The notes: generated from the letters alone by a model not told the origin. A DNA stretch of 32,000 nt from Dickeya solani IPO 2222 (GCF_001644705.1 NZ_CP015137.1:3120001-3152000); one strand, 5' to 3'. Shown: positions 379 through 25,910, counted from the stretch's first letter. Numbers and translations: made by a program.

Positions 379-380
379 CC

Positions 381-2793: not shown

Positions 2794-2821
2794 AATAATA
2801 CAGCCTGATAATATTGATTGG

Positions 2822-4720: not shown

Positions 4721-4727
4721 AGGACGG

Positions 4728-5655: not shown

Positions 5656-6345
5656 ATGAGTCCGAAACGCATTCTGATAATCGAAGATGACACGGATGCT
5701 GCCAGCGTGCTGGAAGCTTACCTGAAACGCGACAATTTTCAGGTGTTGCTGGCGGGTGATGGGCTGAACGGGCTGGATATGGCTCAGCGCCTGAAACCGG
5801 ATCTGATCCTGCTGGATGTGATGCTACCGGGCATGAACGGCACCGAAGTGCTGGCCGCCCTGCGCCGCAAAAGCGATGTGCCGGTGATCATGGTCACCGC
5901 TATGGGGGACGATACCGATAAGATCGGCGCGCTGCGGTACGGCGCGGACGATTACGTGACGAAGCCCTACCATCCCGGCGAGGTGGTGGCGCGCGTGCAG
6001 GCGGTGTTGCGGCGTACCTGCGGCGCGATGACGCCCGGCCGATCGTTGACCTTCGGGGCGCTGGAGGTAGATCAGGATGCGATGGTCGCTACCGTGGCCG
6101 ATGCGCAGAGCCAGCGCCAGCCACTGGATCTGACGCCGACGGAATTCAGCCTGTTGGCCACTCTGCTACGCGCTCAGACCCGCGCCTTTTCCCGTCAGGA
6201 ATTGCTGGAGGCGTGCCTGCCGGACAGCGATGCGCTGGAGCGGGTGGTGGATACCCATATTTATAATCTGCGCAAAAAGCTGGAGGCGGTCGGCATTGGC
6301 GGGGTGCTGCTGACGGTGCGCGCGGTTGGTTACAGGTTCCGTTAG
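5656..6345 (+). CDS. OmpR/PhoB-family response regulator
   Basis: Receiver domain (RILIIEDD...LILLDVMLPGMNG...VIMVTA...DDYVTKP) plus winged-helix output (LTPTEFSLLATLL...VDTHIYNLRKKL...VRAVGYRF). The start was moved to the ATG at 5656 (MSPKRILIIEDD). Confidence 0.9.
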   Translation: MSPKRILIIEDDTDAASVLEAYLKRDNFQVLLAGDGLNGLDMAQRLKPDLILLDVMLPGMNGTEVLAALRRKSDVPVIMVTAMGDDTDKIGALRYGADDYVTKPYHPGEVVARVQAVLRRTCGAMTPGRSLTFGALEVDQDAMVATVADAQSQRQPLDLTPTEFSLLATLLRAQTRAFSRQELLEACLPDSDALERVVDTHIYNLRKKLEAVGIGGVLLTVRAVGYRFR

Positions 6346-7517: not shown

Positions 7518-7563
7518 GCTTACTCAAGAGATGACGGCTGGGATAAAACTGATTTTTCAGCAC

Positions 7564-7581
7564 TCTTGATGGTTTCTTGAT
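7564..7581 (+). promoter_or_regulatory. Candidate response-regulator binding site: direct repeat TCTTGAT-N4-TCTTGAT (11-bp register) upstream of the RND operon
   Basis: tcttgat occurs at 7564-7570 and 7575-7581, about 70 bp upstream of the adaptor start (7649). The complementary tcaagag at 7524-7530 matches 6 of the 7 positions (tcttga). A full copy occurs in reverse orientation at 5641-5647 just upstream of the regulator gene. OmpR-family proteins typically bind direct repeats one helical turn apart. Confidence 0.35.
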
Positions 7582-7648
7582 AAAGCGTGGAAACAATCTG
7601 GAAATGTTTGCGGTGTAATAGTTACTAGTCGGTAACAGGAAGCCCATC

Positions 7649-8791
7649 ATGATAAATGCAGAGTCCACCTTTTGTACCCTTAATCACGTAGCCTGTCGCG
7701 GAGGCAACGCGTTTTTACGCGTCGGTGGGCTGGGAGCCTTGCTACTGGCCGCAAGCCTGCTGTCCGGTTGCAACGACGCCAGCAGCGAGCAGGCTTCCGA
7801 GCCGCCGCGCCCGGTTCGCACGGTTACCGTCGAGCCGTCCGCCACCGGTGAGGTGTTATCGCAGATCGGGGAAATCCGCCCGACCGAAGAGACCGCGCTG
7901 GGGTTCCGTCTGGATGGGCGGGTGGTTTCGCGTGCGGTGGATGTGGGCGCAATCGTAAAGGAAGGCGATGTGATCGCCACGCTGGATGCCCGCGACAGCG
8001 AAAACCAACTACAGAGCGCCAGAGCGGACCTGACCCGCGCGACGGCGGCGGAACGGCTGGCGGAGCAGAACCTTAGCCGTATGAAACAGCTGGCTCCCAA
8101 CGGCGCCATTTCCCGTTCGCAACTGGATGAGGCACAGTCGAACTGGGCCTCGGCGGTATCCGTGCGTGAAAGCGCCCAGGCCAGCGTCAAAAGCGCGCAG
8201 GATCGTCTGGGTTATACCCGGTTGTTAGCCCCGGTCGCCGGCGTGATCACCGCGGTCAGCGCCAACCCCGGTCAGGTGGTGAACGCCGGGCAGGAAGTGG
8301 TACGGCTGGCGACCTTCGCCGGCCGCGACGCGGTGTTCAATGTCTCCGAACGTCTCATCACCAGCGGCCTGAAAGATCCGCTGGTGATGGTTTCCCTGCT
8401 GTCCAACCCGGCGATCAAAACCCAAGGGCATGTGCGTGACGTCAGCCCGCTGGCCGATGCCGAAACCCGCACCTGGCGAGTACGCGTCTCGCTGATTGAA
8501 CCGCCGAAAGAGATGGTGCTAGGCGCCACCGTACAGGGTGAGGTAACGCTGCCCGGTGGTAATGCCATTGCGCTGCCGGCGTCGGCGCTGACCCGTCAGG
8601 GCGATAATCCTGCGGTGTTTGTGGTCGACCCGCAGACGCAGACGCTGCGGCTGCAACCGATCACTCTGCGTCATTACAGCGATTCGCAGATCGTTGTCGC
8701 CGACGGCCTGTCCACCGGTGACAAGGTGGTCACGGCCGGCGTCAGCAAACTGCGGGCGGGCGAGAAGGTTACGCTGGCGGAGGCGAAATAA
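7649..8791 (+). CDS. RND efflux periplasmic adaptor (MFP) lipoprotein
   Basis: Lipobox LLSG|C, then a lipoyl/hairpin/beta-barrel layout (VRTVTV...GEIRP...GRVVSRAVDVGAIVKEGDVIATLD...QLQSARADL...LGYTRLLAPVAGVIT). Its stop overlaps the pump start (TAATG). Confidence 0.85.
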   Translation: MINAESTFCTLNHVACRGGNAFLRVGGLGALLLAASLLSGCNDASSEQASEPPRPVRTVTVEPSATGEVLSQIGEIRPTEETALGFRLDGRVVSRAVDVGAIVKEGDVIATLDARDSENQLQSARADLTRATAAERLAEQNLSRMKQLAPNGAISRSQLDEAQSNWASAVSVRESAQASVKSAQDRLGYTRLLAPVAGVITAVSANPGQVVNAGQEVVRLATFAGRDAVFNVSERLITSGLKDPLVMVSLLSNPAIKTQGHVRDVSPLADAETRTWRVRVSLIEPPKEMVLGATVQGEVTLPGGNAIALPASALTRQGDNPAVFVVDPQTQTLRLQPITLRHYSDSQIVVADGLSTGDKVVTAGVSKLRAGEKVTLAEAK

Positions 8792-11916: not shown

Positions 11917-13164
11917 TCAGAAGGTAAAGCTCAGTTTGGCGGCGGCACCGTAGGTGTGTTTGCTTTCGGTGCCGACCATGCCGGTCAGGTCAAGGTGTAC
12001 GCCAAACGGCGACAGGCCGAGACCGGCGGTGACCAGATTCTTGTCGCTGTCGCGCATATTGGCGCGGTAACCGACGCGCAGTTGCGCCCAGGACAGCACG
12101 CGGTATTCCGCACCTACCCCGGCGTACTGGTTTTTCTTCTCGGAATCAAAACCGCTGGCGGGCGTCAGGTCGATATCGGTGGCCAGCGTCAGCGTTTCCG
12201 TGCTCCAGGCGGTGCCCGCGGTGACCTGCGGCCGAAGGTGGAAGGTTCTCTGTATGCCTTGCACCTCTTTGGTGTCGATGCGGCGGTCAATCAGGTTCTG
12301 CGCCACCAACCCGGCGCTCCAGCGCGATGTCAGATCGGTACTGAAACCGAGATCCAGGTTGGCGCCGGAGCTGGATTTCTTGAATTCCGAATTGCGGAAA
12401 TCGGAGGTGCTGTAGTTATTGATCGACGCAATATAGTTATAGGTGTCGATCCGTTGCAGTTTGGGGGTGATACCCACGGAGACTGGCTGACCGGCGATGC
12501 TGAACGCTTTCGCCATCGCTACGCCGTATTCGGTCACCAGCGCGCCTGCGCCTTCGGCCCGGGAGGTGAAATTGTTCAGGTCGGCCGAGGTCGGAATGGT
12601 GGTGCCGGCCGCCACGCTATCCAGATAGGCCAGATCGCGGTCGGTCACCACGGCCTTGGCATTCGCCACGCCCCAACCTTTGACGACGACGGCGAAAGGC
12701 AACGTTTCGTTGGGAACCGCCACCACGGTAGCGGCGGCGGCATCGCCGTAAGCGCGATCGTCATTGATGCTATGCAAATCGCTTCTCAGCGACTGGAAGG
12801 AGGAGATGCCCTGTTGCAGCGCCAGCCGACGCAATAGCGGATTGGTGATACCGCTGCTGGAATTCAGCACGTCTTTGATACTATCCCAACTGTTTTTGAT
12901 GCGGTCGAACTTATCTTCCACTTTGTCGGGGTCGGACACCACCACGCCTACCGAAGGCAGGATCAGGCTGACGTTGTCGCTGGCTTGCGCTTTGGTCAGC
13001 AGCGCCGGGTTGGCCAGCGCGGCGGAGCCGTAGTGCGACGAGGCGACCCCGGTTCCGCCCATGGCGTCATTCCTGGCATCTGACCAGGTTCCGGCGGCAA
13101 AGGTTATGGCAGGAGAAAACAGACCCGCTACCGTCATGGCGCGGACAAGTGATTTTTTATGCAT
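11917..13164 (-). CDS. Outer-membrane beta-barrel protein, TraF_2 / FadL-like family (often auto-annotated 'conjugal transfer protein TraF')
   Basis: Signal peptide MHKKSLVRAMTVAGLFSPAITFA|A. The mature N-terminus ARNDAMGGTGVASSHYGSAALANPALL recalls the TraF_2 family. Amphipathic strand pattern with C-terminal ...AAKLSFTF. Confidence 0.6.
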   Translation of the reverse strand: MHKKSLVRAMTVAGLFSPAITFAAGTWSDARNDAMGGTGVASSHYGSAALANPALLTKAQASDNVSLILPSVGVVVSDPDKVEDKFDRIKNSWDSIKDVLNSSSGITNPLLRRLALQQGISSFQSLRSDLHSINDDRAYGDAAAATVVAVPNETLPFAVVVKGWGVANAKAVVTDRDLAYLDSVAAGTTIPTSADLNNFTSRAEGAGALVTEYGVAMAKAFSIAGQPVSVGITPKLQRIDTYNYIASINNYSTSDFRNSEFKKSSSGANLDLGFSTDLTSRWSAGLVAQNLIDRRIDTKEVQGIQRTFHLRPQVTAGTAWSTETLTLATDIDLTPASGFDSEKKNQYAGVGAEYRVLSWAQLRVGYRANMRDSDKNLVTAGLGLSPFGVHLDLTGMVGTESKHTYGAAAKLSFTF

Positions 13165-13834
13165 ACGAGCATTCCTTGATCATCGAAGGTATTGAGGAAA
13201 AAATTCCTTTTTGCTGTGTGCTCGTAATTTTTTTATAGATATAAATGCGGTAACTAAAATAAATAAAACCAGAGGACACCCTTGTGCAGGCGGAGCAAAA
13301 ACAGACCTTGGTTGAAAGGAATGAATATCTCGCGTCAAACTGAGACTGCTTTTCGGTGTGTCATTGCGACAATAGTGGCACAGCCTAGCATTTTCATTTC
13401 TGGCGGCGATAGCCCTTTACCCGGGTTCAGGTGTGATGGGGCGTAATGATTTCCTAATTCATTGAATTTATTTAATTTATCTATTGATTGAATAAAGGGG
13501 TTTAATTCATCTTATTTGAGGGAATGAATTCCTTGAATTGCTGAAGGCCTTATGTCTATTTTTAAACCATAGCCCTCTTCAGATAAAGAAAATATTCGTT
13601 CTGCGGTGGTCTGAATTCTTGCAATGTTTTTTTCCACGTCCGCATTCGGCGTCATTTAATCACTCGTCATTCCATCGGATTCTTTTAGGCTGATGTAGCC
13701 TGTCGGTGCCTGATGCAGCTGAAGAGGACTGCCATACGAAAGCGATTGCTTATTTTGGGAGGCCTCCTTACCCTGAAATGCACAGGCGCAATGCGATTCA
13801 ATTAGCGGCAATGAGCGAACGGCAAAGGGCAAGT

Positions 13835-14230
13835 ATGCGGACAATCGAAAAATTTCAGCGCGGTGACTTGCTGGTGGCAGCCTGCCCGTCACGCGGAGTG
13901 CTACAGCACATCACCAGCCGTTGGGGCATCCTGATTCTGATTGTGCTGGAATCGAAAACGCTCCGTTTCAGCGAATTGCGCCGCCTGATCAATGGCGTCA
14001 GCGAACGCATGCTGGCCCAGACATTACAGTGTCTGGAAGGCGACGGCCTGATCAACCGGGTGGCTTATGACGTGGTGCCGCCGCACGTGGAATACAGCCT
14101 GACCCCGCTGGGGAAAGAAGCCGCGGAGAAGGTGCGGGTGCTGGTGGACTGGATTGAAGAAAGCATGCCGCGTATCGCTGAACATTGGCGCGAGTCAGGG
14201 ACGGCGCGATCGCGGAAAACGTCTGCCTGA
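13835..14230 (+). CDS. HxlR-family (YtfH-like) winged-helix transcriptional regulator
   Basis: CPSRGVLQHITSRWGILILIVLESKTLRFSELRRLINGVSERMLAQTLQCLEGDGLINRVAYDVVPPHVEYSLTPLG is the HxlR-type HTH signature. The ATG at 13835 gives a family-typical length of 132 aa. Starts at 13706 and 13811 are possible but would add an atypical extension. Confidence 0.8.
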   Translation: MRTIEKFQRGDLLVAACPSRGVLQHITSRWGILILIVLESKTLRFSELRRLINGVSERMLAQTLQCLEGDGLINRVAYDVVPPHVEYSLTPLGKEAAEKVRVLVDWIEESMPRIAEHWRESGTARSRKTSA

Positions 14231-14277
14231 AACGCGGCGGGAATCATGCCGCATTTCCGCCTTTAGTCCGCGTTTTT
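14230..14277 (+). terminator. Possible terminator after the HxlR gene
   Basis: aaacgcgg (14230-14237) pairs with ccgcgttt (14268-14275), followed by extra T residues. The 30-nt loop is non-canonical. Confidence 0.3.
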
Positions 14278-14444
14278 CAATCGTTAGTGAATGATCTCAG
14301 CCTAATGATTTCTACCGGTTTTATTGTTGATAAAACCAGAAAGCTGTGTTTAATTTTAAGTTAATGCTTTCGCATTTTTTCTATTTTAGCGTTATCGATT
14401 TTTACACCAGGTTTGATTTTTTAAATTAATAACAGATTCTTGCC

Positions 14445-17400
14445 ATGGATATCCTGCCGGTTGGTGCAGGGGCGGTTGCCTGTTTTTCAAACCTGTCAAT
14501 ATCGGTGATGCTTATGGCCCAGCAACGAACTCTGTATAACGCAACCCGCATGGTGCTTGAGCGCCGTTTGATGTTTGATGCCGCCGCTGTCGCCACGGCG
14601 GATCAGGTTGCCAATGACCAGCCAGATGGCGCCAGTCATGACGGTAGTGCCGATTCGGCAACGCCGGAACATACCAATACCGATTTAATTCAGGCCATTA
14701 GCCAGATCGAAACGCCGCCCGCCCGCGTTGAGGTATTCTTTATTGACGGCGCGTTGCCAAATAAAGACGCGCTGGTCTCGCAATTACCGGCCAATGCATC
14801 GGTGTATATTCTGGATAGTAATCAGGATGGGTTAAATCAAATCGCTGATATTCTTTCTAATTATAAAAATGTCGATGCGATTCATATTATTTCACACGGT
14901 GATAGTGGGCAGATTGAATTAGGCAATAGCCTCGTCTCGGCGGAAAATATAGATAGCTATCAAACTATATTAGAGCAAATAAATTTATCTCTAAACAGTT
15001 CTGCCGATGTTTTAATTTATGGCTGTAATGTTGGGGATGAGGCCGGGCAACAGTTATTGAGCGCGCTGTCGTCGTCGCTGGATTCGGACGTAGCGGCGTC
15101 ATCCGATATTACCGGGGTTGATGGCAACTGGGTGCTGGAAAGCCATGTCGGCAGTATCGAAACCGAATCCATCAATCCGACAGGCTGGCATGCCAATCTG
15201 TTGCTGGGAATAAACACCGCGCCTACTGCTGTGGTTGATGTGGCGCTGGTGAGCCAAAATAGTTCGACCATCATTAATGTGACCGCGAACGATATCGATC
15301 TGGAAGGCGATGCCATCAAGGTGACCGGGGCCAGCGCGCTATTTGGCAAGGTAACGATCAATACCGACAATACGCTGACCTATACCCCCAATAACGGCTA
15401 TTTCGGCGTTGATACCATCACTTATACCATTGCTGACAGTAAAGGACTGTCGGCGTTGCTGCCGGGTACGGTGGCGGTAACGGTCAATAGCTTGCCTACC
15501 TTGTCGTTACCGGTGCTGGTTAATCTGTTCAATGAAGATACGCCGATAGTCTTCGCCAATATTCTGGGCACCAAAATCAGCATTGGCGACCTCGACGGCA
15601 GCATCGCCAGGATCTCGTTATCGGTGCCGCTGGGTTCGCTGACGCTATCCCAGACCGCTAATCTGTCGTTTAGCCAGGGCGACGGCATCAACGACAGCAA
15701 CATCACCATGCAGGGTAATATTGCGGATATCAATGCCGCGCTGAATGGCCTGATTTATACCCCGGATGCAGACTATAACGGTCCGGTGACCATCACTATC
15801 GGCTTAACCGACACCTTGCTGGCGATACCGATTACCGCCTCGCTGCCAATTGGCATTGCGCCGGTGGCGGATATTGTCAGTGATTCCGTCATTACTAATG
15901 TCAGTTCGCCGGTCAGTTTCAATGTGATGGCGAACGATACTTTTGAAAACATCAACGCTCGGGTGACGTCTTACAGCACGCCATCACACGGTACGGTGGT
16001 GATTGATAGCACCGGCAACGCGGTCTACACCCCTAATAGCGGTTACCTGGGGAATGACTCGTTTACCTATACCGTTACCAGTAATGGCACCACGGAAACC
16101 ACCACCGTCACCATCCATATCAATACGCCGCCGGTCGCCAACCCGGACAGCGCTACCACGCCGGAAGATACGTCGGTGACGGTGAACGTGCTGGCCAATG
16201 ATACCGATGCCGATGGTAATACGCTGACCGTGACATCGGCCAGCGCCGGGCACGGCACAGTGGTGATCAACGCCAACGGTACGCTGACCTATACGCCGGC
16301 CGCCAACTACAACGGCAGCGACACCATTACCTATAAGATCAGTGACGGATTGGGCGCCAGCGCGACGGGTACGGTAACGGTGACCATCACGCCGGTGAAC
16401 GATGCACCGGTGGCGGTCAACGACACGGCGACCACCGCAGAAGACACGCCGGTGACGGTGAATGTGCTGGCGAACGACAGCGATGTGGACGGCGATACGC
16501 TGACGGTGACTGCCGCCAGCGCCGGACACGGCACGGTAGTCATTAACGCCAACGGCACGCTGACCTATACGCCGGCGGCCAACTACAACGGCAGCGACAC
16601 CATCAGCTACACCGTCAGCGACGGTCAGGGCGGCACGTCCACCGCTATTGTGGCGGTCACGGTGACGCCGGTGAACGATGCACCGGTGGCGGCCAATGAT
16701 ACGGCCACCACGCTGGAAGACACGCCGGTGACGGTCAATGTGCTGGCGAATGACAGCGATGTGGACGGCGACAGCCTGACGGTGACCGCCGCGACGGCCG
16801 GACACGGCACGGTGGTGATCAACGCCAACGGTACGCTGACCTATACGCCGGCCGCCAACTACAACGGCAGCGACACCATCAGCTACACCGTCAGCGACGG
16901 CCACGGCGGCACCGCCACCGCGACCGTGACGGTGAGCATCACGCCGGTCAATGACGCGCCGGTGGCGGTGAACGACACGGCCACCACGCTGGAAGACACG
17001 CCGGTGACCGTCAATGTGCTGGCGAACGACAGCGATGTGGACGGCGACAGCCTGACGGTGACCGCCGCCAGCGCCGGGCATGGCACGGTAGTCATTAACG
17101 CCAACGGCACGCTGACCTACACGCCGGCCGCCAACTACAACGGCAGCGACACCATCAGCTATACCGTCAGCGACGGTCAGGGCAGCACCGCCACTGCGAC
17201 CGTGACGATGAGCATCACGCCGGTCAATGACGCGCCGGTGGCGGCCAACGACACGGCCACCACCGCGGAAGATACGCCGGTGACGGTGAATGTGCTGGCG
17301 AATGATACTGATGTGGACGGCGACAGCCTGACGGTGACCGCCGCCAGCGCCGGGCACGGCACGGTAGTCATTAACGCCAACGGCACGCTGACCTATACCC

Positions 17401-20400
17401 CGGCCGCCAACTACAACGGCAGCGACACCATCAGCTATACCGTCAGCGACGGCCACGGCGGCACCGCGACGGCCACGGTGGCGGTGACTATCACGCCGGT
17501 CAATGACGAGCCGGTGGCGGCTAATGATACGGCGACCACCGCGGAAGACACGCCGGTGACGGTGAATGTGCTGGCTAACGACAGCGACGTGGACGGCGAC
17601 AGCCTGACGGTGACCGCCGCCAGCGCCGGGCATGGCACGGTAGTCATTAACGCCAACGGCACGCTGACCTATACCCCGGCCGCCAACTACAACGGCAGCG
17701 ACACCATCAGCTATACCGTCAGCGACGGTGCCGGCGGCGTGGCGACAGGAATGCTGACCATCACGGTTACCGCTGTGAATGATGCACCGGTAACCGGGGC
17801 GGATATGGCAGCGACCAGTCAAAATACCCCAGTGACGGTCAATGTGCTGGCGAATGACAGCGATGTGGACGGCGATACGCTGACGGTGACCGCCGCCAGC
17901 GCCGGACATGGCACGGTGGTGATCAATGCTGACGGTACCCTGACCTATACGCCCAACACGAATTACAGCGGTAGCGATACGGTAACTTATACCGTCAGCG
18001 ATGGCGCTGGCGGTATAGCCCAGGGGACATTAACGGTGACAATCGCGCCGGTGAATAGTGCTCCTTCGGCAAACCCAGACAGCGCAAGTACATTGGAAGA
18101 TACGCCGGTGACGGTGGATGTGTTGGCAAATGATACCAGTGCAAACGGCTCGCCTTTGACAATACAAGGGGCTGTTGCAGGTAACGGGACTGTAGTCATC
18201 AATTCAGACGGTACGCTGACCTATACCCCCAACGCCAATTTTAACGGCACCGACACGGTAACCTATACCGTCAGCAATAGTCAGGGAGGATTGGCTACGG
18301 GGACGCTGACCATCACGGTGACCGCCGTCAATGATGCCCCAGTGGCGGGCGCTGATAGCGCCACCACAGCGGAAGACACCCCGGTGACGGTGGACGTGCT
18401 GGCCAACGATACCGATGTGGACGGCAACCCGCTGACGGTGACTGCCGCGACGGCCGGACACGGCACGGTGGTGATCAACCCGGACGGCACGCTTACCTAT
18501 ACCCCCAATGCCGACTTTAACGGCACCGACACCGTGACCTACACCGTCAGCGACGGCGCCGGCGGGGTGGCAACCGGCACGCTGACCATTACCGTGACCG
18601 CCGTCAATGACGCACCGGTGGCCGGTAATGACAGCGCCACTACCGCGGAAGACACCCCGGTGACGGTGGACGTGCTGGCGAACGACAGCGATGTGGACGG
18701 CAATCCGCTGACCGTCACCGCGGCGACGGCCGGCAACGGCTCGGTGGTGATTAACCCGGACGGCACACTCACCTACACCCCCAATGCCAATTTTAACGGC
18801 ACCGACACCGTGACCTACACCGTCAGTGACGGCGCGGGCGGGGTAGCGACCGGGACGCTGACTATCACGGTGACCGCCGTCAATGACGCACCGGTGGCGG
18901 GCGCGGATACCGCCACTACCGCGGAAGACACCCCGGTGACGGTGGACGTGCTGGCGAACGACAGCGATGTGGATGGCAATCCGTTAATCGTGACCGCGGC
19001 GACGGCGGGTAATGGCACGGTGGTGATTAACCTGGATGGCACGCTGACTTACACGCCCAACGCCAACTTTAACGGCACCGATACCGTGACCTATACGGTC
19101 AGCGACGGTGCGGGTGGGGTGGCAACCGGCACGCTGACCATTACCGTCACTGCGGTGAATGACGCGCCGGTCACCGGTAACGACAGCGCCACCACCGCGG
19201 AAGACACCCCGGTCACCGTCGACGTGCTGGCGAATGATTCTGATGTGGACGGCAATCCGCTGACGGTGACTGCCGCGACGGCCGGACACGGCACGGTGGT
19301 GATCAACCCGGACGGCACACTCACCTATACCCCCAATGCCAATTTTAACGGTACCGACACCGTGACCTACACCGTCAGTGACGGCGCCGGCGGGGTGGCG
19401 ACTGGTACCCTGACCATTACCGTGACGGCAGTGAACGATGCACCGGTCAACGGTAACGACAGCGCCACTACCGCCGAGGACACGCCGGTAACGGTGGATG
19501 TGCTGGCCAACGATACCGATGTGGACGGCAATCCGCTGACGGTGACTGCCGCGACGGCCGGACACGGCACGGTGGTGATCAACCCGGACGGCACGCTGAC
19601 CTACACGCCCAACGCCAACTTTAACGGTACCGATACGGTGACCTATACGGTCAGCGACGGCGCCGGCGGGGTGGCAACCGGCACCCTGACCATTACCGTG
19701 ACCGCCGTCAATGACGCGCCGGTCACCGGTAACGACAGCGCCACCACCGCGGAAGACACCCCGGTCACCGTCGACGTGCTGGCGAATGATTCTGATGTGG
19801 ACGGCAATCCGCTGACGGTGACTGCCGCGACGGCCGGACACGGCACGGTGGTGATTAACCCGGACGGCACACTCACCTACACCCCCAATGCCGACTTTAA
19901 CGGCACCGACACCGTGACCTACACCGTCAGCGACGGCGCTGGCGGGGTAGTGACCGGGACGCTGACTATCACGGTGACCGCGGTCAATGACACGCCGGTG
20001 GCCGGTAACGATAGCGCCACTACCGCCGAGGACACCCCGGTGACGGTGGACGTGCTGGCGAACGACAGCGATGTGGACGGCAATCCGCTGACCGTCACCG
20101 CGGCGACGGCCGGCAACGGCTCGGTGGTGATCAATGCCGACGGCACACTCACCTATACCCCCAACGCCAACTTTAACGGTACCGATACGGTGACCTACAC
20201 TGTCAGTGACGGCGCCGGCGGGGTGGCGACCGGGACGCTGACTATCACGGTGACCGCCGTCAATGATGCACCGGTGGCCGGTAACGACAGCGCCACCACC
20301 GCCGAGGACACGCCGGTAACGGTGGATGTGCTGGCCAACGATACCGATGTGGACGGCAACCCGCTGACGGTGACTGCCGCGACGGCCGGCAACGGCTCGG

Positions 20401-23400
20401 TGGTGATCAACGCCGACGGCACACTCACCTACACCCCCAACGCCAACTTTAACGGTACCGACACCGTGACCTACACCGTCAGCGACGGCGCCGGCGGGGT
20501 GGCAACCGGTACGCTGACCATCACGGTGACCGCGGTGAATGATGCACCGGTGGCCGGCGCGGATACCGCCACCACCGCGGAAGATACGCCGGTGACGGTG
20601 GATGTGCTGGCCAACGATACCGATGTGGACGGCAATCCGCTGACGGTGACTGCCGCGACGGCCGGACACGGCTCGGTGGTGATCAACCCGGACGGCACAC
20701 TCACCTATACCCCCAATGCCAATTTTAACGGTACCGACACCGTGACCTACACCGTCAGTGACGGTGCGGGTGGGGTGGCAACCGGTACCCTGACCATTAC
20801 CGTGACGGCAGTGAACGATGCACCGGTCACCGGTAACGACAGCGCCACTACCGCCGAGGACACGCCGGTAACGGTGGATGTGCTGGCCAACGATACCGAT
20901 GTGGACGGCAATCCGCTGACGGTGACTGCCGCGACGGCCGGACACGGCACGGTGGTGATCAACCCGGACGGCACGCTGATCTACTCGCCCAACGCCAACT
21001 TTAACGGTACCGACACCGTGACCTATACCGTCAGCGACGGTGCGGGTGGGATGGCAACCGGCACGCTGACCATTACCGTGACCGCCGTCAATGACGCACC
21101 GGTGGCGGGCAGCGACTCGGCGACCACGGCGGAAGACACGCCGGTCACCGTCGACGTGCTGGCAAATGATTCTGATGTGGACGGCAATCCGCTGACGGTG
21201 ACCGCCGCGACGGCGGGTAATGGCTCGGTGGTGATCAACGCCGACGGCACGCTGACTTACACGCCCAACGCCAACTTTAACGGCACCGATACCGTGACCT
21301 ATACGGTCAGCGACGGTGCGGGTGGGGTGGCAACGGGCACGCTGACCATTACCGTCACGGCGGTGAATGACGCGCCGGTCACCGGTAACGACAGCGCCAC
21401 CACCGCGGAAGATACGCCGGTCACCGTTGATGTTCTGGCGAACGACAGCGATGTGGACGGCAATCCGCTGACCGTCACCGCCGCGACGGCGGGTAACGGA
21501 TCGGTGGTGATCAACGCCGACGGCACGCTGACCTATATCCCCAATGCCAACTTTAACGGCACCGACACCGTGACCTACACCGTCAGTGACGGCGCGGGTG
21601 GGGTGGCGACCGGTACCCTGACCATTACCGTCACGGCAGTGAACGATGCACCGGTCACCGGTAACGACAGCGCCACTACGGCCGAAGATACCCCGGTCAC
21701 CGTCGATGTGCTGGCGAATGATGCTGATGTGGACGGCAACCCGCTGACGGTCACCGCCGCGACGGCCGGCAACGGCACGGTGGTGATCAATGCCGACGGC
21801 ACACTCACCTACACCCCCAATGCCGACTTTAACGGCACCGACACCGTGACCTACACCGTCAGTGACGGCGCGGGCGGGGTGGCAACCGGTACGCTGACCA
21901 TTACCGTGACGGCCGTCAATGACGCACCGGTGGCCGGCGCGGATACCGCCACTACCGCGGAAGATACACCAGTGACGGTGGACGTGCTGGCGAACGACAG
22001 CGATGTGGACGGCAATCCGCTGACGGTGACTGCCGCGACGGCCGGCAACGGCTCGGTGGTGATTAACCCGGACGGCACGCTGACCTACTCGCCCAACGCT
22101 AACTTTAACGGCACCGACACCGTGACCTACACCGTCAGCGACGGTGCCGGCGGGGTGGCTACGGGCACGCTGACCATTACCGTGACGGCAGTCAATGACG
22201 CACCGGTGGCCGGTGCGGATAGCGCCACTACGGCCGAAGATACGCCGGTCACCGTCGACGTGCTGGCCAACGACAGCGATGTGGACGGCAACCCGCTGAC
22301 GGTGACCGCGGCGACGGCCGGCAACGGGTCGGTGGTAATTAACCCGGACGGCACGCTGACCTATACCCCCAATGCCGACTTTAACGGCACCGACACCGTG
22401 ACCTACACCGTCAGCGACGGCACCGGCGGAGTGGCAACCGGGACGCTGACCATTACCGTGACCGCCGTCAATGACGCGCCCGTCACCGGTAACGACAGCG
22501 CCACTACCGCCGAGGACACGCCGGTCACTGTCGATGTGCTGGCCAACGATACGGATGTGGACGGCAACCCGCTGACCGTCACCGCGGCCACCGCCGGTAA
22601 CGGCACGGTGGTGATTAACCCGGACGGCACGCTGACCTACACCCCCAACGCCAACTTTAACGGCACCGACACCGTGACCTATACGGTCAGCGACGGTTCG
22701 GGTGGGGTGGCAACCGGCACGCTGACCATTACCGTGACCGCCGTCAATGACGCACCGGTGGCGGGCAGCGACTCGGCGACCACGGCGGAAGACACGCCGG
22801 TCACCGTCGATGTGCTGGCCAACGACAGCGATGTGGACGGCAATCCGTTAATCGTGACCGCCGCGACGGCCGGCAACGGGTCGGTGGTGATCAACGCCGA
22901 CGGCACGCTGACCTACACCCCCAATGCCAACTTTAACGGCACCGACACCGTGACCTACACCGTCAGTGACGGCGCCGGCGGGGTGGCAACGGGCACGCTG
23001 ACCATTACCGTGACGGCAGTGAACGATGCACCGGTCACCGGTAACGACAGCGCCACTACGGCCGAAGATACGCCGGTCACCGTCGATGTGCTGGCGAACG
23101 ATACCGATGTGGACGGCAACCCGCTGACCGTCACCGCGGCGACGGCCGGCAACGGGTCGGTGGTAATTAACCCGGACGGCACGCTGACCTACACCCCCAA
23201 CGCCAACTTTAACGGCACCGATACGGTGACCTACACCGTCAGCGACGGCGCGGGCGGGGTGGCAACCGGCACGCTGACCATCACGGTGACGGCGGTGAAT
23301 GATGCGCCGGTGTCCGGTAATGATAGCGCCACCACACTGGAAGATACCCCGGTCACCGTCGATGTACTGGCGAATGATACTGATGTGGACGGCAACCCGC

Positions 23401-24371
23401 TGACTATTACCGCCGCTACCGCCGGCAATGGCTCGGTGGTGATCAACGTCGATGGCACCCTGACCTATACCCCCAACGCCAACTTTAACGGCACCGACAC
23501 CGTGACCTATACCGTCAGCGACGGCGCGGGCGGTGTGGCGACCGGTACCCTGACCATTACCGTGACGGCGGTCAACGACGCGCCTGAGGTGATCGGTGAG
23601 ATAACGTTAAATACGTCAATGAATACCCCGGTATCGGTCAATGTGCTGGATAACAGCCGCGATGTGGACGGCGATCCGCTGACGGTTACGTCGATATCGG
23701 TCACCAACGGCAGAGTGCTGTTTAACGCCGGCGGCATGATGACCTACATACCCAACCCCGGTTTTAGCGGGACGGATGTGGTCAGTTACACCCTCAGCGA
23801 CCCACAGGGCAGTACGGTGCGTGGCACGCTGACGGTAGTGGTCAGCGCGTTACCGGGAACGGACGGTAATACGGCAGGCGGCGGGACCGGGCAGATGAAC
23901 CCTGTGTCGTCGCCGGATAATGCCGGCTTGCCGCTCACACCAGGACGCATGAGCGTGGAAATGGAGGCTAAGGAGTATGACCCGATATTGCTGGACGCCG
24001 TGAATGCGATCAAAGGATTGGGCGGCAGTGCGCAACTGCTCGGCAATCAGCCGGGCAACGAGGCTATCGCTGGCGTGAAGTCGCTGGGTACCAGCAGCGG
24101 GCTTGATCCGTCAAAGGGGAGCATTAATCAGATCGTCCGTGATTTTGAGCCAACCAGGACATTTGAGTTTTTGAATGATGCGCAGAATCAGCCCGTAACC
24201 AACCCGGCAGCACTCGCTGAAGGTGTACCCATCGGGCCTGAAACCGCACAAAACAATAACACGACGATACCCGCGCAGGATGAACCCGCTGTCACTGTTG
24301 AACAGCAATTGCAGACCATTGCGATGCGTGAGCAGCAAGCATTGAGGGATCTTATCCGTGCGTTGAGTTAA
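14445..24371 (+). CDS. Giant (3308 aa) DUF4347-like N-domain / tandem cadherin- or Ig-like repeat surface protein (putative adhesin)
   Basis: Single uninterrupted 9927-nt ORF. The N-terminus has ...MVLERRLMFDAAAVATADQ, then a DUF4347-like block (VFFIDGALPN...VYILDSNQDGLNQIADIL...VDAIHIISHGDSGQIELG...LIYGCNVG). About 30 modules of roughly 90 aa follow, carrying VNDAPVA..DTPVTV.VLAND.DVDG..LTV......G.V.IN.DGTLTYTP...(Y/F)NG.DT..YTVSDG. A 172-aa non-repeat tail closes the protein. The start is uncertain: 14445, or the ATGs at 14508/14514. Confidence 0.9.
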   Translation: MDILPVGAGAVACFSNLSISVMLMAQQRTLYNATRMVLERRLMFDAAAVATADQVANDQPDGASHDGSADSATPEHTNTDLIQAISQIETPPARVEVFFIDGALPNKDALVSQLPANASVYILDSNQDGLNQIADILSNYKNVDAIHIISHGDSGQIELGNSLVSAENIDSYQTILEQINLSLNSSADVLIYGCNVGDEAGQQLLSALSSSLDSDVAASSDITGVDGNWVLESHVGSIETESINPTGWHANLLLGINTAPTAVVDVALVSQNSSTIINVTANDIDLEGDAIKVTGASALFGKVTINTDNTLTYTPNNGYFGVDTITYTIADSKGLSALLPGTVAVTVNSLPTLSLPVLVNLFNEDTPIVFANILGTKISIGDLDGSIARISLSVPLGSLTLSQTANLSFSQGDGINDSNITMQGNIADINAALNGLIYTPDADYNGPVTITIGLTDTLLAIPITASLPIGIAPVADIVSDSVITNVSSPVSFNVMANDTFENINARVTSYSTPSHGTVVIDSTGNAVYTPNSGYLGNDSFTYTVTSNGTTETTTVTIHINTPPVANPDSATTPEDTSVTVNVLANDTDADGNTLTVTSASAGHGTVVINANGTLTYTPAANYNGSDTITYKISDGLGASATGTVTVTITPVNDAPVAVNDTATTAEDTPVTVNVLANDSDVDGDTLTVTAASAGHGTVVINANGTLTYTPAANYNGSDTISYTVSDGQGGTSTAIVAVTVTPVNDAPVAANDTATTLEDTPVTVNVLANDSDVDGDSLTVTAATAGHGTVVINANGTLTYTPAANYNGSDTISYTVSDGHGGTATATVTVSITPVNDAPVAVNDTATTLEDTPVTVNVLANDSDVDGDSLTVTAASAGHGTVVINANGTLTYTPAANYNGSDTISYTVSDGQGSTATATVTMSITPVNDAPVAANDTATTAEDTPVTVNVLANDTDVDGDSLTVTAASAGHGTVVINANGTLTYTPAANYNGSDTISYTVSDGHGGTATATVAVTITPVNDEPVAANDTATTAEDTPVTVNVLANDSDVDGDSLTVTAASAGHGTVVINANGTLTYTPAANYNGSDTISYTVSDGAGGVATGMLTITVTAVNDAPVTGADMAATSQNTPVTVNVLANDSDVDGDTLTVTAASAGHGTVVINADGTLTYTPNTNYSGSDTVTYTVSDGAGGIAQGTLTVTIAPVNSAPSANPDSASTLEDTPVTVDVLANDTSANGSPLTIQGAVAGNGTVVINSDGTLTYTPNANFNGTDTVTYTVSNSQGGLATGTLTITVTAVNDAPVAGADSATTAEDTPVTVDVLANDTDVDGNPLTVTAATAGHGTVVINPDGTLTYTPNADFNGTDTVTYTVSDGAGGVATGTLTITVTAVNDAPVAGNDSATTAEDTPVTVDVLANDSDVDGNPLTVTAATAGNGSVVINPDGTLTYTPNANFNGTDTVTYTVSDGAGGVATGTLTITVTAVNDAPVAGADTATTAEDTPVTVDVLANDSDVDGNPLIVTAATAGNGTVVINLDGTLTYTPNANFNGTDTVTYTVSDGAGGVATGTLTITVTAVNDAPVTGNDSATTAEDTPVTVDVLANDSDVDGNPLTVTAATAGHGTVVINPDGTLTYTPNANFNGTDTVTYTVSDGAGGVATGTLTITVTAVNDAPVNGNDSATTAEDTPVTVDVLANDTDVDGNPLTVTAATAGHGTVVINPDGTLTYTPNANFNGTDTVTYTVSDGAGGVATGTLTITVTAVNDAPVTGNDSATTAEDTPVTVDVLANDSDVDGNPLTVTAATAGHGTVVINPDGTLTYTPNADFNGTDTVTYTVSDGAGGVVTGTLTITVTAVNDTPVAGNDSATTAEDTPVTVDVLANDSDVDGNPLTVTAATAGNGSVVINADGTLTYTPNANFNGTDTVTYTVSDGAGGVATGTLTITVTAVNDAPVAGNDSATTAEDTPVTVDVLANDTDVDGNPLTVTAATAGNGSVVINADGTLTYTPNANFNGTDTVTYTVSDGAGGVATGTLTITVTAVNDAPVAGADTATTAEDTPVTVDVLANDTDVDGNPLTVTAATAGHGSVVINPDGTLTYTPNANFNGTDTVTYTVSDGAGGVATGTLTITVTAVNDAPVTGNDSATTAEDTPVTVDVLANDTDVDGNPLTVTAATAGHGTVVINPDGTLIYSPNANFNGTDTVTYTVSDGAGGMATGTLTITVTAVNDAPVAGSDSATTAEDTPVTVDVLANDSDVDGNPLTVTAATAGNGSVVINADGTLTYTPNANFNGTDTVTYTVSDGAGGVATGTLTITVTAVNDAPVTGNDSATTAEDTPVTVDVLANDSDVDGNPLTVTAATAGNGSVVINADGTLTYIPNANFNGTDTVTYTVSDGAGGVATGTLTITVTAVNDAPVTGNDSATTAEDTPVTVDVLANDADVDGNPLTVTAATAGNGTVVINADGTLTYTPNADFNGTDTVTYTVSDGAGGVATGTLTITVTAVNDAPVAGADTATTAEDTPVTVDVLANDSDVDGNPLTVTAATAGNGSVVINPDGTLTYSPNANFNGTDTVTYTVSDGAGGVATGTLTITVTAVNDAPVAGADSATTAEDTPVTVDVLANDSDVDGNPLTVTAATAGNGSVVINPDGTLTYTPNADFNGTDTVTYTVSDGTGGVATGTLTITVTAVNDAPVTGNDSATTAEDTPVTVDVLANDTDVDGNPLTVTAATAGNGTVVINPDGTLTYTPNANFNGTDTVTYTVSDGSGGVATGTLTITVTAVNDAPVAGSDSATTAEDTPVTVDVLANDSDVDGNPLIVTAATAGNGSVVINADGTLTYTPNANFNGTDTVTYTVSDGAGGVATGTLTITVTAVNDAPVTGNDSATTAEDTPVTVDVLANDTDVDGNPLTVTAATAGNGSVVINPDGTLTYTPNANFNGTDTVTYTVSDGAGGVATGTLTITVTAVNDAPVSGNDSATTLEDTPVTVDVLANDTDVDGNPLTITAATAGNGSVVINVDGTLTYTPNANFNGTDTVTYTVSDGAGGVATGTLTITVTAVNDAPEVIGEITLNTSMNTPVSVNVLDNSRDVDGDPLTVTSISVTNGRVLFNAGGMMTYIPNPGFSGTDVVSYTLSDPQGSTVRGTLTVVVSALPGTDGNTAGGGTGQMNPVSSPDNAGLPLTPGRMSVEMEAKEYDPILLDAVNAIKGLGGSAQLLGNQPGNEAIAGVKSLGTSSGLDPSKGSINQIVRDFEPTRTFEFLNDAQNQPVTNPAALAEGVPIGPETAQNNNTTIPAQDEPAVTVEQQLQTIAMREQQALRDLIRALS
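14727..15155 (+). other. DUF4347-like N-terminal domain of the giant protein (domain-level annotation)
   Basis: aa 95-237: VEVFFIDGALPNKDALVSQLPANASVYILDSNQDGLNQIADILSNYKNVDAIHIISHGDSGQIELGNS...SADVLIYGCNVGDEAGQQLLSALSSSLDSDVAASSDITG. This matches my recollection of the domain that heads many giant repeat proteins. The coding DNA here is visibly more AT-rich than the repeats. Confidence 0.6.
16128..18335 (+). repeat. Tandem 276-bp (92-aa) coding repeats, units 1-8 (type A plus transitional units)
   Basis: Units start at 16128+276(n-1). Units 2-6 are type A (..VNVLANDSDVDGDSLTVTAASAGHGTVVINANGTLTYTPAANYNGSDTISYTVSDG..). Unit 6 ends with the type-B tail AGGVATGMLTITVTAVND. Units 1, 7 and 8 are divergent or chimeric. 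Degenerate related modules lie upstream at 15219-15491 and 15858-16127. Confidence 0.9.
18336..23579 (+). repeat. Tandem 276-bp (92-aa) coding repeats, units 9-27 (19 near-identical type-B units)
   Basis: Consensus APV(A/T)G(N/A)DSATTAEDTPVTVDVLAND(S/T)DVDGNPLTVTAATAG(N/H)G(S/T)VVIN(P/A)DGTLTYTPNA(N/D)FNGTDTVTYTVSDGAGGVATGTLTITVTAVND. The exact 276-nt register is also visible as periodic 75-77-aa antisense ORFs every 276 nt in the ORF track. A divergent 28th unit lies at 23580-23846. Confidence 0.92.
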
Positions 24372-24383
24372 TGGAATGTCACA

Positions 24384-25910
24384 ATGCCTGATTTTATCAA
24401 ACAGTCTGTTTTGGCGTCTTTTGCTGTCTGGGGAGTGGTGATGATGACCGGGTGTGCGGTGACGTCACCACCGATTGATACCGATAAACAAACCTGGGGC
24501 GCGTATGACCGCATCAATGAGATCGTATCCCGGGATGAAGCGGTTGCAGGGCCGATTTCGTTGTATGAGGCGATGGCGCGGGCGCTGAAATACAACCTCG
24601 ACCAAAAAATCGAACTGATGGATGAGGAGTACAAAAGCAAACTCAGCGAGCTGGGAAGGCTTGGCATGTTTCCGTCGGTGGTGGCATCGGTGGGCGGTAG
24701 TCAGCGCAACAATGACTCCGGCTCCAGCAGCCGTTCATTGATCGACGGTAGCCAGTCGTTGCAGTCTTCGACATCGTCGGAACGGCGTACCTATACCGCT
24801 CAGCTGGCGGCCAGTTGGGATATTCTGGATTTTGGCCTGTCCTATATTCAGAACAAACAGAATGTGGACGAGCAATATATCTCCCAGGAGCGGCGGCGCA
24901 AGGTCATCAGCCGTATTCTGGAGGATGTGCGTACGGCTTACTGGCGGGCGGTCAGCGCCGACCGTACCCATGAAAAACTGATCAAGCTGGAGGCGCTGGC
25001 GCAGAAAACCCTGTTCCAGTCCGAACAACTGGCGAAACGGCGCAACGTGTCGCCGCTAAAGGTGCTGAATTATCAGCATGACCTGCTGGAAATTCAGGCG
25101 AATGTGCAGCGCATGCAGCGCGAATTGTTTTTTGCCAAAAAGCAGCTGGCGGCGCTGATTAACCTGAAACCTGAAACACCATTCAAACTGGTTCTGCCGG
25201 ACCGGACCGCCGTCGTGCCGGAATTGCCCGGTTCGGCGGAACAGATGATATTGATCGGGTTGAAATATCGCTCCGAATTGCGTGAATCCAGTTATCGAAA
25301 ACGAATCAATGACAATGAATTGACGAAACAATGGGTTCGCAATTTGCCGTCATTTAAAACGTTATTGGGCATGAATTACGACACCAATAAATATCTCTAT
25401 AACAATGAATGGACGAATCTCTCCGGCACGGTCAGCTGGAATCTGATGAATGTGTTCAGTTATCCGATGCAGCATAAAGTGGTGCAGGCCGAGGCTAAAG
25501 TGATTCAGGCGCGTGAGGATGCGCTGATAATGGCTATTCTTACGCAAATCTATGTTGCCAGGGCGCGTTTTATCCGTCTTTCTCAGGAATTAAATACGGT
25601 GCGCCAGAGTCATGAGGTTCAGGACAATATATTGGAACTGACCCGTGCCGGCTTTCAGGGAAAAATCATTAGTCAGATGGATCTGGTACAGGTTGAGATG
25701 AAAACCATTCTGGACGAGGTGCGTTATGACACCGCCTATGCCGATTTGCAAAATGCTTATGCCAATCTGTATGCCTCAATGGGGATCGATAATTTTGATT
25801 CTGACATTACTGAAAAGGATTCCGTCTCCAGTATCGCGAAAAAACTCCAGTTTTATTGGACGGAAGAAATTACCACCTTACCGGAAGTATCAAGGCGGGA
25901 AAATCCATGA
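24384..25910 (+). CDS. TolC/OEP-family outer-membrane factor, probable lipoprotein
   Basis: Lipobox-like VVMMTG|C. The OEP-type start is ISLYEAMARALKYNLDQKIE. Two long coiled-coil/beta repeats are present (..VRTAYWRAVSA..., ..ILTQIYVARARFIRLSQEL...YDTAYADLQNAYANLYASMG). It starts 12 nt after the giant gene's stop. Confidence 0.85.
   Translation: MPDFIKQSVLASFAVWGVVMMTGCAVTSPPIDTDKQTWGAYDRINEIVSRDEAVAGPISLYEAMARALKYNLDQKIELMDEEYKSKLSELGRLGMFPSVVASVGGSQRNNDSGSSSRSLIDGSQSLQSSTSSERRTYTAQLAASWDILDFGLSYIQNKQNVDEQYISQERRRKVISRILEDVRTAYWRAVSADRTHEKLIKLEALAQKTLFQSEQLAKRRNVSPLKVLNYQHDLLEIQANVQRMQRELFFAKKQLAALINLKPETPFKLVLPDRTAVVPELPGSAEQMILIGLKYRSELRESSYRKRINDNELTKQWVRNLPSFKTLLGMNYDTNKYLYNNEWTNLSGTVSWNLMNVFSYPMQHKVVQAEAKVIQAREDALIMAILTQIYVARARFIRLSQELNTVRQSHEVQDNILELTRAGFQGKIISQMDLVQVEMKTILDEVRYDTAYADLQNAYANLYASMGIDNFDSDITEKDSVSSIAKKLQFYWTEEITTLPEVSRRENP

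Follow-up and report, generated by a model that had tools for sequence, protein, structure and literature searches.

The giant gene and its product

The 32,000-nucleotide stretch of the Dickeya solani IPO 2222 genome analyzed in this study (GCF_001644705.1, NZ_CP015137.1:3120001-3152000; hereafter the window, whose first letter is position 1) carries a gene for a giant exoprotein followed by four genes on the same strand. Together these form a conserved five-gene system: the giant, a TolC-family outer-membrane factor (OMF), two membrane-fusion proteins (MFP1 and MFP2), and an inner-membrane fusion protein that combines a domain resembling the recognition element (RRE) of peptides that are made on ribosomes and modified after translation (RiPPs), an M50 metalloprotease and a third MFP domain. 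No ATPase is linked to this system, and its cargo is marked by an N-terminal leader of the LEPR-XLL type. The OMF gene starts 12 bp past the stop codon of the giant and the next three junctions abut or overlap; the four downstream genes, hereafter the module, are translationally coupled to the giant. The features of the locus are as follows, with protein positions given in amino acids (aa).

14445..24371, + strand: giant exoprotein gene, 3308 aa, ATG start; orthologue of D. dadantii Dda3937_01477
14556..14606, + strand: LEPR-XLL-like leader motif LERRLMFDAAAVATADQ, aa 38-54, a degenerate form of the family consensus
14733..15170, + strand: DUF4347 domain, aa 97-242, with a predicted clan-CD fold (like caspase, legumain or the cysteine protease domain, CPD, of toxins)
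14895-14897 and 15024-15026, + strand: putative catalytic dyad, His151 and Cys194, invariant
15207..23846, + strand: repeat region, with 3-4 divergent units and then approximately 27 near-identical 92-aa tandem-95/Big_9/Cadherin_5 units with a DxDxDG calcium site
23847..24368, + strand: non-repeat C-terminal region, aa 3135-3308, a candidate recognition or secretion element
23973-24020, + strand: EYDPILLDAVNAIKGL motif in the C-terminal region, common to distant homologues
within 24273-24368, + strand: terminal amphipathic tail VEQQLQTIAMREQQALRDLIRALS, common to distant homologues
24384..25910, + strand: TolC-family OMF, 508 aa, with a lipoprotein-type signal (…MMTGC)
25907..26857, + strand: MFP1, 316 aa, with a signal peptide, periplasmic, of RND_mfp/HlyD_3 type; its start overlaps the OMF stop codon
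26850..28214, + strand: MFP2, 454 aa, with a cytoplasmic domain of ~190 aa, one transmembrane (TM) segment (aa 192-210) and an HlyD-type periplasmic domain
28217..30298, + strand: fusion protein, 693 aa, the inner-membrane core of the module
28217-28486, + strand: PqqD/RRE-like cytoplasmic domain of the fusion, aa ~1-90, probable on fold and profile evidence
aa ~136-430 of the fusion, + strand: polytopic M50 metalloprotease, with HEMGH at aa 189-193 (28781-28795) and NPFSRFDG at aa 285-292
29522-30295, + strand: MacA/HlyD-like membrane-fusion domain of the fusion, aa ~436-693

From N- to C-terminus, the giant thus consists of a leader, a DUF4347 domain, approximately 31 calcium-binding repeats and a C-terminal tail. 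Its reading frame is uninterrupted, its DNA is 100% identical to the called gene in the complete D. solani genome CP051457.1 (locus L084; labels of this form denote the loci and contigs compared below), and its neighbourhood is the same in 19 further assemblies; therefore, the open reading frame (ORF) is not an artefact, and the frameshift or assembly error that the initial annotation had named as a possible refutation was not found. The gene is broken only in older scaffold assemblies, at N-gaps within the repeats. Six proteins encoded in the window, namely the AcrB-type pump, TctC, the OMF, MFP2, the M50 fusion and the TraF-like barrel, match D. solani entries exactly. Near-identical clusters are present in D. 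dadantii 3937, D. fangzhongdai and D. undicola, and the cluster is missing from D. dianthicola.

The repeats number ~31, with boundaries every 92 aa, and comprise 30 Big_9/Cadherin_5/Cadherin_4 units by Pfam and 30 tandem-95 repeats by NCBIfam, with 30 stretches each of NF012211, PF17963 and PF17892. In the DNA, Tandem Repeats Finder delimits the array at 16146-23581 (26.9 copies of 276 bp at 84% identity). The giant contains 27 DxDxDG motifs, most commonly as LANDSDVDGNPL and LANDTDVDGNPL, which are predicted calcium sites, and zero GGxGxD motifs. The adhesin-type build of about 30 cadherin/Ig-like modules bearing such motifs, and the lack of the nonapeptides of repeats-in-toxin (RTX) proteins, were both as initially described. 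With 2 Cys and 375 acidic versus 27 basic residues (the family median is ~1 Cys per 1000 aa), and with its 27 calcium sites, the composition is typical of proteins secreted unfolded. The giant is a genuine acidic, Cys-poor repeat exoprotein, predicted to bind calcium and probably an adhesin. The repeat part (16001-23000) has a GC content of 0.63-0.66 and an AT skew of +0.19 to +0.28, forming a sharp composition mosaic against the leader/DUF4347 head and the OMF/MFP1 genes (0.47-0.54 over 14001-16000 and 24001-26000). Two antisense ORFs inside the array (15984-17909, − strand, 641 aa; 18984-20945, − strand, 653 aa) are shadow ORFs of the GC-rich repeats, the 641-aa one having been called as a gene in the older D. 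solani assemblies L085 and L086.

At the N-terminus, the sole NCBIfam match of the Dickeya head, with its leader LERRLMFDAAAV, is LEPR-XLL (NF012209), a ~24-aa N-terminal LEPRxLL motif, at 11.9-14.4 bits against a cut-off of 17 bits. By alignment, the Dickeya motif is the same element as the LEPR of the family with proline replaced by arginine, and 7 of 9 tested leaders of module-linked relatives pass the cut-off (17.4-23.4 bits). A logo of 93 leaders comprises an N-region that is basic, with a net charge of +4 and a median length of 35 aa, the core P-x-[LIM]-[LM]-A-L-E-P-R-[IMV]-[ML]-F-D-[GA]-A-[AV]-[AV]-A-T-[AV]-A-[ED], and an acidic Ala-rich linker; likewise, in the alignment of DUF4347 heads a 'LEPRxxFDAAxVAT' element lies 20-60 residues from the start and is followed by an acidic linker and the DUF4347 domain. 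The strict LEPR pattern occurs 100 times among 21,268 ORFs, with 97 occurrences in DUF4347 ORFs and 0 in reversed sequences, and two of the three occurrences outside DUF4347 ORFs are frame-split heads. Every DUF4347 giant with a visible N-terminus at the module loci described below bears the motif, as does an adjacent giant without DUF4347 (L029).

The initial annotation found no classical Sec, Tat or lipoprotein signal at this N-terminus. The heads of homologues, which have a hydrophilic basic N-region and a charged LEPR core, indeed show no Sec-type signal, but the N-terminus is not featureless, since it carries the family-wide LEPR-XLL-type leader at aa 38-54. The first ~21 annotated residues of the Dickeya protein (MDILPVGAGAVACFSNLSISV) are mildly hydrophobic, with no counterpart in the basic, hydrophilic N-regions of homologues, and annotated residues 6-24 show mild hydrophobicity (Kyte-Doolittle 1.71) preceded by an acidic residue. 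Because these hydrophobic first 24 residues are missing from homologues, the true start (M1, M22, M24 or M36) is uncertain. A 95%-identical metagenome copy (L088) was discarded as a guide to the start codon, as the sequences are too alike and the upstream DNA is equally conserved.

The DUF4347 domain (PF14252) is matched by Pfam with an E value of 1.5e-43 (148.8 bits versus a cut-off of 24.6). In an AlphaFold2 (AF2) model of the head, the predicted confidence (pLDDT) is ~90 or higher across most of the domain (aa ~91-240), and the best Foldseek match of the model is Tce1 (9qpe_G, E 3e-5), followed by legumain, caspase-3/-7/-8 and CED-3 at ~1e-3. Tce1 (PA0256) of Pseudomonas aeruginosa (PDB 9qpe), described in a 2026 paper as a putative CPD-like cysteine protease, has a His/Cys pair that superposes on the CPD dyad of TcdB. 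His151 and Cys194 are invariant in the 16 sequences of the head alignment, where His147, Ser150, Gly152, Asp188, Tyr192 and Gly193 are invariant as well. Given the structural matches to Tce1 and caspases and the invariant His/Cys pair, a clan-CD-like fold bearing a conserved putative dyad is predicted for DUF4347. The earlier statement that DUF4347 has no assigned function is out of date, since the 2026 structure of one member, Tce1, led to its description as a putative cysteine protease.

At the other end of the protein, the tails of the Dickeya giant and of the Pseudomonas HR96 giant have in common EYDPILLDAVNAIKGL and a terminal amphipathic 'QQLQ…L..AL'. A hidden Markov model (HMM) of the last ~40 residues matches 24 of 67 visible tails, and many others are alike by eye. 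A universal C-terminal signal was rejected, as the HMM takes only those 24 tails and the tails of Nitrospira and Nitrosomonas end in a TM-like motif; judged from the tails compared, a C-terminal recognition element would be common but, unlike the leader, not universal. The C-termini of the Nitrospira and Nitrosomonas giants (L034, L064, L078, L123) carry W..R.G.LL..L...P.W...DP, which is TM-like, and a basic/acidic tail in place of QQL…L..AL; this may represent a different anchoring mode.

The downstream module

The OMF is recognized by Pfam OEP (E 4.6e-27) and lies well under the NCBIfam TolC/NodT subfamily cut-offs. Three operon genes match the Pfam families HlyD_3/HlyD_D23 and score only 19-31 bits against TIGR01843 (type_I_hlyD), whose cut-off is 208. 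The adaptor genes have been annotated as 'efflux RND transporter periplasmic adaptor' (RND, resistance-nodulation-division) and the M50 fusion as 'biotin/lipoyl-binding protein'. MFP1 contains low-complexity repeats: its signal peptide is followed by four copies of PENSG/PENSR, and its C-terminus has five of (S/P)(V/I)ISK. A GAF assignment for the cytoplasmic domain of MFP2 was dropped, as this was a guess that no Pfam or PDB profile matched.

No ATP-binding cassette (ABC) ATPase was found in the window, in which there is no ABC_tran match and no ORF with both a Walker A motif and LSGGQ. Domain scans of the giant and its neighbours detected no TpsB/POTRA partner and no autotransporter barrel, in agreement with the initial annotation. 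The window ORFs scanned include no LapG (DUF920) or LapD, and the head of the giant is DUF4347 rather than a Lap retention module. The initial annotation had also described the giant as free of the hallmarks of type I secretion systems (T1SS). This stands for the ABC ATPase, which is missing from the window, but not for the other two of the three components, as the operon has both a TolC-family OMF and HlyD-like MFPs.

The protease of the fusion is under selection, since its HExxH and NPxxRFDGY motifs (here HEMGH and NPFSRFDG) are invariant across 23 diverse homologues of 28-48% identity. Pfam M50 scores 27.3 bits against a cut-off of 27.2, and the protein has at least five hydrophobic segments. 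The closest curated family of the M50 region is the daptide HExxH RiPP leader peptidase (E 1.6e-34); the fusion scores 119.6 bits against the 300-bit cut-off of the corresponding equivalog, NF041824, and is thus related to that family but not a member. In searches of profiles against structures, the HExxH helix gave weak matches to RseP and MjS2P, and the periplasmic part matched MacA, HlyD (including the TM-proximal segment), ZneB, LipC and EmrA. A 713-aa version with a GTG start was set aside because it is not on record; the annotated protein has 693 aa and starts at the ATG at 28217.

The N-terminal domain of the fusion, which no Pfam family matched, was modelled by AF2 with a pLDDT of 80 as β-β-β-α-α-α, the β3-α3 topology of RREs. 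Foldseek ranks TbiB1, a lasso-peptide RRE in complex with its leader, first (probability 0.93, TM-score 0.61, E 0.17), ahead of the RRE-bearing CteB. When a profile was built from 15 N-domains, PqqD (3g2b) was the only PDB match at E <1, with the whole PqqD chain aligned (E 0.18), and hhalign gave a pairwise E value of 7e-4 at a probability of 26%. The RRE-like assignment is considered probable because two independent methods, predicted structure and profile, rank the same small superfamily first, though each score is weak. Homologues of the fusion form a large M50-MFP family with 1,918 representatives of 50%-identity clusters at E ≤ 1e-30, found in at least 383 species genomes; the best 150 relatives are all colinear proteins of ~700 aa that include the N-domain.

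Association of giant and module across genomes

Eighty-four module loci were mapped with HMMs built in this analysis: the window, three look-ups, and 80 genome loci obtained through M50-MFP homologues of 28-48% identity with flanks of ±10 kb. MFP2 was identified in 83 of the 84 loci, MFP1 in 74 and an OMF homologue in 50. A DUF4347 head is visible at 44 of the 84 loci, and at another 23 there is an adjacent giant whose head either lies beyond the 10-kb flank or is without DUF4347, for a total of 67 loci with an adjacent giant. Fifteen loci are cut by a contig end, and two that show at least 6 kb on each side are giant-less. The giant may be upstream of the module (Dickeya; Pseudomonas sp. HR96, 6,109 aa), downstream (Pseudomonas, Nitrospira) or divergent.

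The association was also examined in the reverse direction, starting from 80 DUF4347 heads on metagenome contigs, 71 of which have a LEPR leader. The visible flank contains M50/MFP2 for 23 of these 71 and an OMF homologue for 17 more, while no LEPR+DUF4347 head among the 71 had fully visible flanks and no module. The pairing recurs in more than 100 genomes and metagenome contigs and was observed in both directions in Alpha-, Beta-, Gamma- and Zetaproteobacteria and in Nitrospirota. The adjacent module, which the initial annotation had proposed as the obvious candidate for exporting the giant, is therefore its consistent neighbour whichever partner is used as the starting point, and the two are very likely functionally coupled.

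None of the 84 module clusters contains an ORF with both Walker A and LSGGQ, and the 24 metagenome loci with a visible module are likewise free of ABC genes. Clustering of the other neighbouring ORFs revealed no further universal component, no ATPase, no conserved small precursor gene, and no pump of the RND, major facilitator superfamily (MFS) or ABC type in the clusters.

Several DUF4347 giants are leaderless. In those of L148 and L162, there are 22 and 7 GGxGxD motifs, and the C-termini, 'DFSL' and 'DFIVT', are of the classical 'DFxx' kind of T1SS substrates; an ABC gene is immediately downstream of the L162 giant (L162:9688-11193). None of L121, L148 and L162 shows the M50 module, L121 and L148 with full flanks. 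Since leaderless DUF4347 proteins carry RTX arrays and no module even with full flanks, it is the leader, not DUF4347, that tracks the M50 module. Viewed across these contexts, DUF4347 heads appear to ride on at least three export systems: the M50 module, classical RTX T1SS and, in the case of Tce1, type VI secretion (T6SS).

In approximately 19 Pseudomonas loci (for example, L003:12112-15579), genes for an Asp/Arg β-hydroxylase, a sulfotransferase, a GNAT acetyltransferase, a DUF6916 protein and a phage-tail-collar protein lie between module and giant, and their predicted activities hint at post-translational modification of the cargo. The Terasakiella locus L083 has two module copies (6566-8683, + strand; 12371-14632, − strand). 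At the Nitrospirales locus L078, two different LEPR+DUF4347 giants (52-5817, − strand; 13376-21412, + strand) flank one module; thus, a single module can apparently serve several cargos.

The following neighbouring genes were also considered:

11917-13164, − strand: chromosomal TraF_2/PorV-like outer-membrane β-barrel, flanked by the RND pump and the adhesin cluster; its annotation reads 'conjugal transfer protein TraF'
30331-32000 in the window, L002:12157-16279, L001:6765-8782 and L004:4347-5438: TctC genes

The TraF_2/PorV-like barrel was rejected as an outer-membrane partner, as it is not present at other loci and is kept in D. dianthicola; because it is conserved in that species, which has no cluster, it is probably unrelated to the cluster and mis-named. 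In Dickeya, in Pseudomonas sp. HR96 and in a betaproteobacterial metagenome-assembled genome, but not in more distant loci, the module is immediately followed by one to four TctC (Bug-family) paralogues; these were excluded as a part of the system because only 5 of the 84 loci, those of the nearest relatives, have them. Elsewhere the window encodes, besides the barrel, an HxlR regulator, an RND pump accompanied by a two-component system, and binding proteins of the TctC type. The HxlR ORF (13706-14230, + strand) was called mechanically as 174 aa with a GTG start and is annotated as 131 aa in D. solani genomes. A consensus scan found no convincing promoter in the AT-rich 214-bp gap between HxlR and the giant, and promoter and terminator counts over 13100-32000 were at or below shuffle expectation.

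An export model, its alternatives and known systems

Gene content, domain assignments, invariant catalytic motifs, synteny in both search directions and the lack of an ABC gene in the clusters examined lead us to lean, as an explanation of the whole, towards a TolC/MFP machine that is dedicated to export and processing and responds to the LEPR leader. Under this proposal, a type I/tripartite-like conduit would span the envelope, with a leader-recognizing protease in the place of the ABC ATPase. The cytoplasmic RRE-like domain of the fusion would bind the N-terminal LEPR-XLL-type leader of the cargo, the M50 active site would cut the leader at the membrane, and the unfolded, Ca-free polypeptide would travel through the MFP/TolC duct. 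Outside, each 92-aa unit would fold on binding Ca2+, making the array a folding ratchet, with proton-motive force possibly assisting, while the caspase/CPD-like DUF4347 domain might serve as a plug for retention, as a protease for self-release, or as both; what powers export and what DUF4347 does are given here as we infer them.

These elements do not all merit the same confidence. From its constant company and its duct-like parts, the module is probably the export route of the giant, and whether export is independent of any ABC ATPase is a question on which we are evenly divided. That the module represents an unrecognized, widespread secretion pathway for giant surface proteins, which would be leader-addressed, coupled to intramembrane proteolysis, ATPase-less and powered by Ca2+-driven folding and/or proton-motive force, is conceivable and falls a little short of probable. 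More tentative again is the suggestion, drawn from fold and motif resemblances, that the RRE-like domain binds the leader and the M50 domain cleaves it.

Several observations weigh against the proposed machine. The search for ABC genes covers ±10 kb of the loci, so an unlinked ABC exporter is possible, and no energy-coupling component was found among the module-locus genes. No M50/S2P protease is known to act in translocation. The RRE scores are weak (Foldseek E 0.17, hmmsearch E 0.18, hhalign probability 26%), and Pfam PqqD is not matched by the Dickeya N-domain as a single sequence or by any of the 15 members. The Dickeya leader itself is a sub-threshold LERR variant, and many relatives have a conserved extreme C-terminal tail, at the position of classical T1SS signals. 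In addition, a Vibrio giant headed by LEPR-XLL has been reported with C-terminal RTX/serralysin-type regions; it follows that the leader may be there for retention or processing and not for export, and explanations based on an unlinked ABC exporter or on retention and processing stay alive.

The best surviving alternative, although an unlikely one, is that the giant is a canonical T1SS substrate whose C-terminal tail is an uncleaved signal, with a distant ABC protein powering the local MFPs and TolC-like channel and the M50 fusion only trimming or regulating. The TolC-family and HlyD/MacA-like components, the T1SS-like composition of the giant, a C-terminal motif common across phyla and the 10-kb limit of the flanks are all compatible with this alternative. 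However, in T1SS adhesin systems the genes for the ABC protein and the MFP normally lie side by side, and neither the 84 module loci nor the 24 metagenome module loci contain an ABC gene. The MFPs also score far below the T1SS HlyD model (19-31 bits versus 208), and the DUF4347 proteins that do look like T1SS substrates, with RTX repeats and a DFxx tail, are without LEPR and, where both flanks are visible, without the module, one of them adjoining an ABC gene. A cryptic C-terminal T1SS signal, which the initial annotation had named as the finding that would overturn its view, is thus possible because many homologues have a conserved extreme C-terminal element, but the HMM matches only 24 of the 67 tails. 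The accompanying idea of export outside known pathways is borne out as far as the module is without the T1SS-defining ABC ATPase, while the TolC/HlyD-type parts and the conserved tail leave a T1SS-like signal possible.

Published annotation also places the giant with T1SS. A Dickeya comparative-genomics preprint describes Dda3937_01477 as a multi-repeat cadherin-like adhesin 'associated to a T1SS' and reports that the ancestor of cluster II gained the system and that D. dianthicola has lost it, a species distribution that agrees with the cluster membership found here. A 2025 mBio paper lists the D. dadantii gene among T1SS adhesin loci, each said to adjoin MFP and ABC transporter genes; in contrast, no ABC gene was found at the D. 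solani locus (the window and L084). No published description of the module or of the leader-module pairing was found in a search that left most subscription journals outside its scope.

It is less likely still that the module is an anchoring, processing or release device, comparable to LapD/LapG or to RseP-like regulated proteolysis, which holds or clips the head of a giant exported by other means. The system does contain two putative proteases, M50 in the module and the Cys-His DUF4347 in the cargo; its universal element is N-terminal, where T1SS adhesins are retained; the module has no energy source; and the ~190-aa cytoplasmic domain of MFP2 could be a sensor. Against this, a dedicated OMF and three MFP paralogues are what a duct, and not a protease complex, is built from, none of the loci has another exporter linked to it, and the heads of homologues, with their basic N-region and charged LEPR, have no Sec-type signal.

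A coincidental adjacency, in which the module would serve efflux or export small peptides (RiPPs) and have no tie to the giant, is very improbable: the 'efflux RND' and 'biotin/lipoyl-binding' annotations, the relationship of the M50 domain to RiPP leader peptidases and the two full-flank loci without a giant speak for it, but the two-way synteny extends over five classes/phyla, the partnership is kept where the gene order is rearranged, and the clusters contain no conserved small precursor gene or RND/MFS/ABC pump. Hardest to credit is that the ORF stems from misassembly, is a pseudogene or encodes a protein of the cytoplasm, since, although assembling a 276-bp array at 84% identity is difficult and the gene is interrupted in older D. 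solani drafts, the frame is open with identical DNA in a complete genome and the neighbourhood kept in 19 more assemblies, the extremely acidic, Cys-poor protein has calcium-binding Ig/cadherin-type repeats, and homologues that are intact, with lengths of 1,000 to 6,100 aa, occur widely.

To our knowledge, every characterized inner-membrane protein-translocation route has an identified motor or energy source. In the favoured export-and-processing machine, the TolC/MFP duct has a metalloprotease, read here as leader-recognizing, for its conserved inner-membrane partner, and the cargo can exceed 6,000 residues. If export is indeed independent of an ABC protein, this would be a new mechanism in bacterial protein secretion, and it would give a purpose to the curated, unexplained LEPR-XLL motif and a cellular context to DUF4347. 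Reading the genes as a module corrects the 'T1SS' and 'efflux adaptor / biotin-lipoyl-binding protein' annotations, and the giant system probably matters for the attachment of soft-rot pathogens to plant surfaces. The system is testable in tractable hosts, including Dickeya dadantii 3937, D. solani, and pseudomonads from the fluorescens and stutzeri groups.

The closest known counterparts are the T1SS giant adhesins (LapA/LapEBC, SiiE/SiiCDF, MpIBP, BapA), which likewise consist of a giant acidic, Cys-poor substrate with calcium-binding Ig/cadherin-like repeats and apparently no Sec signal, with a conserved non-repetitive N-terminal head and C-terminal tail, and with OMF and HlyD/MacA-type MFP genes adjoining the substrate gene. 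Unlike these systems, the Dickeya module has no ABC ATPase, three MFP paralogues instead of one, and an RRE-like/M50/MFP inner-membrane partner, while the giant has no RTX nonapeptides, a conserved LEPR-XLL leader, and no LapG/LapD. RiPP and bacteriocin leader systems (PCAT C39-ABC, TbiB1/PqqD, YydH, daptide HExxH), as is probable for the module, pair an N-terminal leader with a leader-binding RRE-like fold and a protease; however, the substrate here is 1,000 to 6,000 aa long, the protease forms one protein with an MFP and works alongside a TolC homologue, and there is no ABC domain. In the GlyGly-CTERM/rhombosortase and PEP-CTERM/exosortase pairs, a short terminal motif on large surface proteins is similarly matched with a dedicated polytopic membrane protease, but the LEPR motif is N-terminal and not a TM anchor, the M50 protease is fused to an MFP and has its own OMF, and there is no sign of prior Sec export. 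For the DUF4347 domain, the clan CD CPDs (TcdA/TcdB, MARTX, family C80) and Tce1 are alike in predicted fold and in the invariant His...Cys pair. As in the CPD toxins, the domain is part of a large secreted protein, although it is N-terminal where the CPD is internal, and Tce1, unlike the giant, is a small T6SS cargo without LEPR leader or repeats. Tripartite TolC systems have an inner-membrane transporter of the ABC, RND, MFS or PET type. Relative to all of these, the Dickeya system is rated as a TolC/MFP tripartite system with an unprecedented inner-membrane partner and addressing signal, and there is a substantial chance that it represents a mechanistically new, ATPase-less secretion route.

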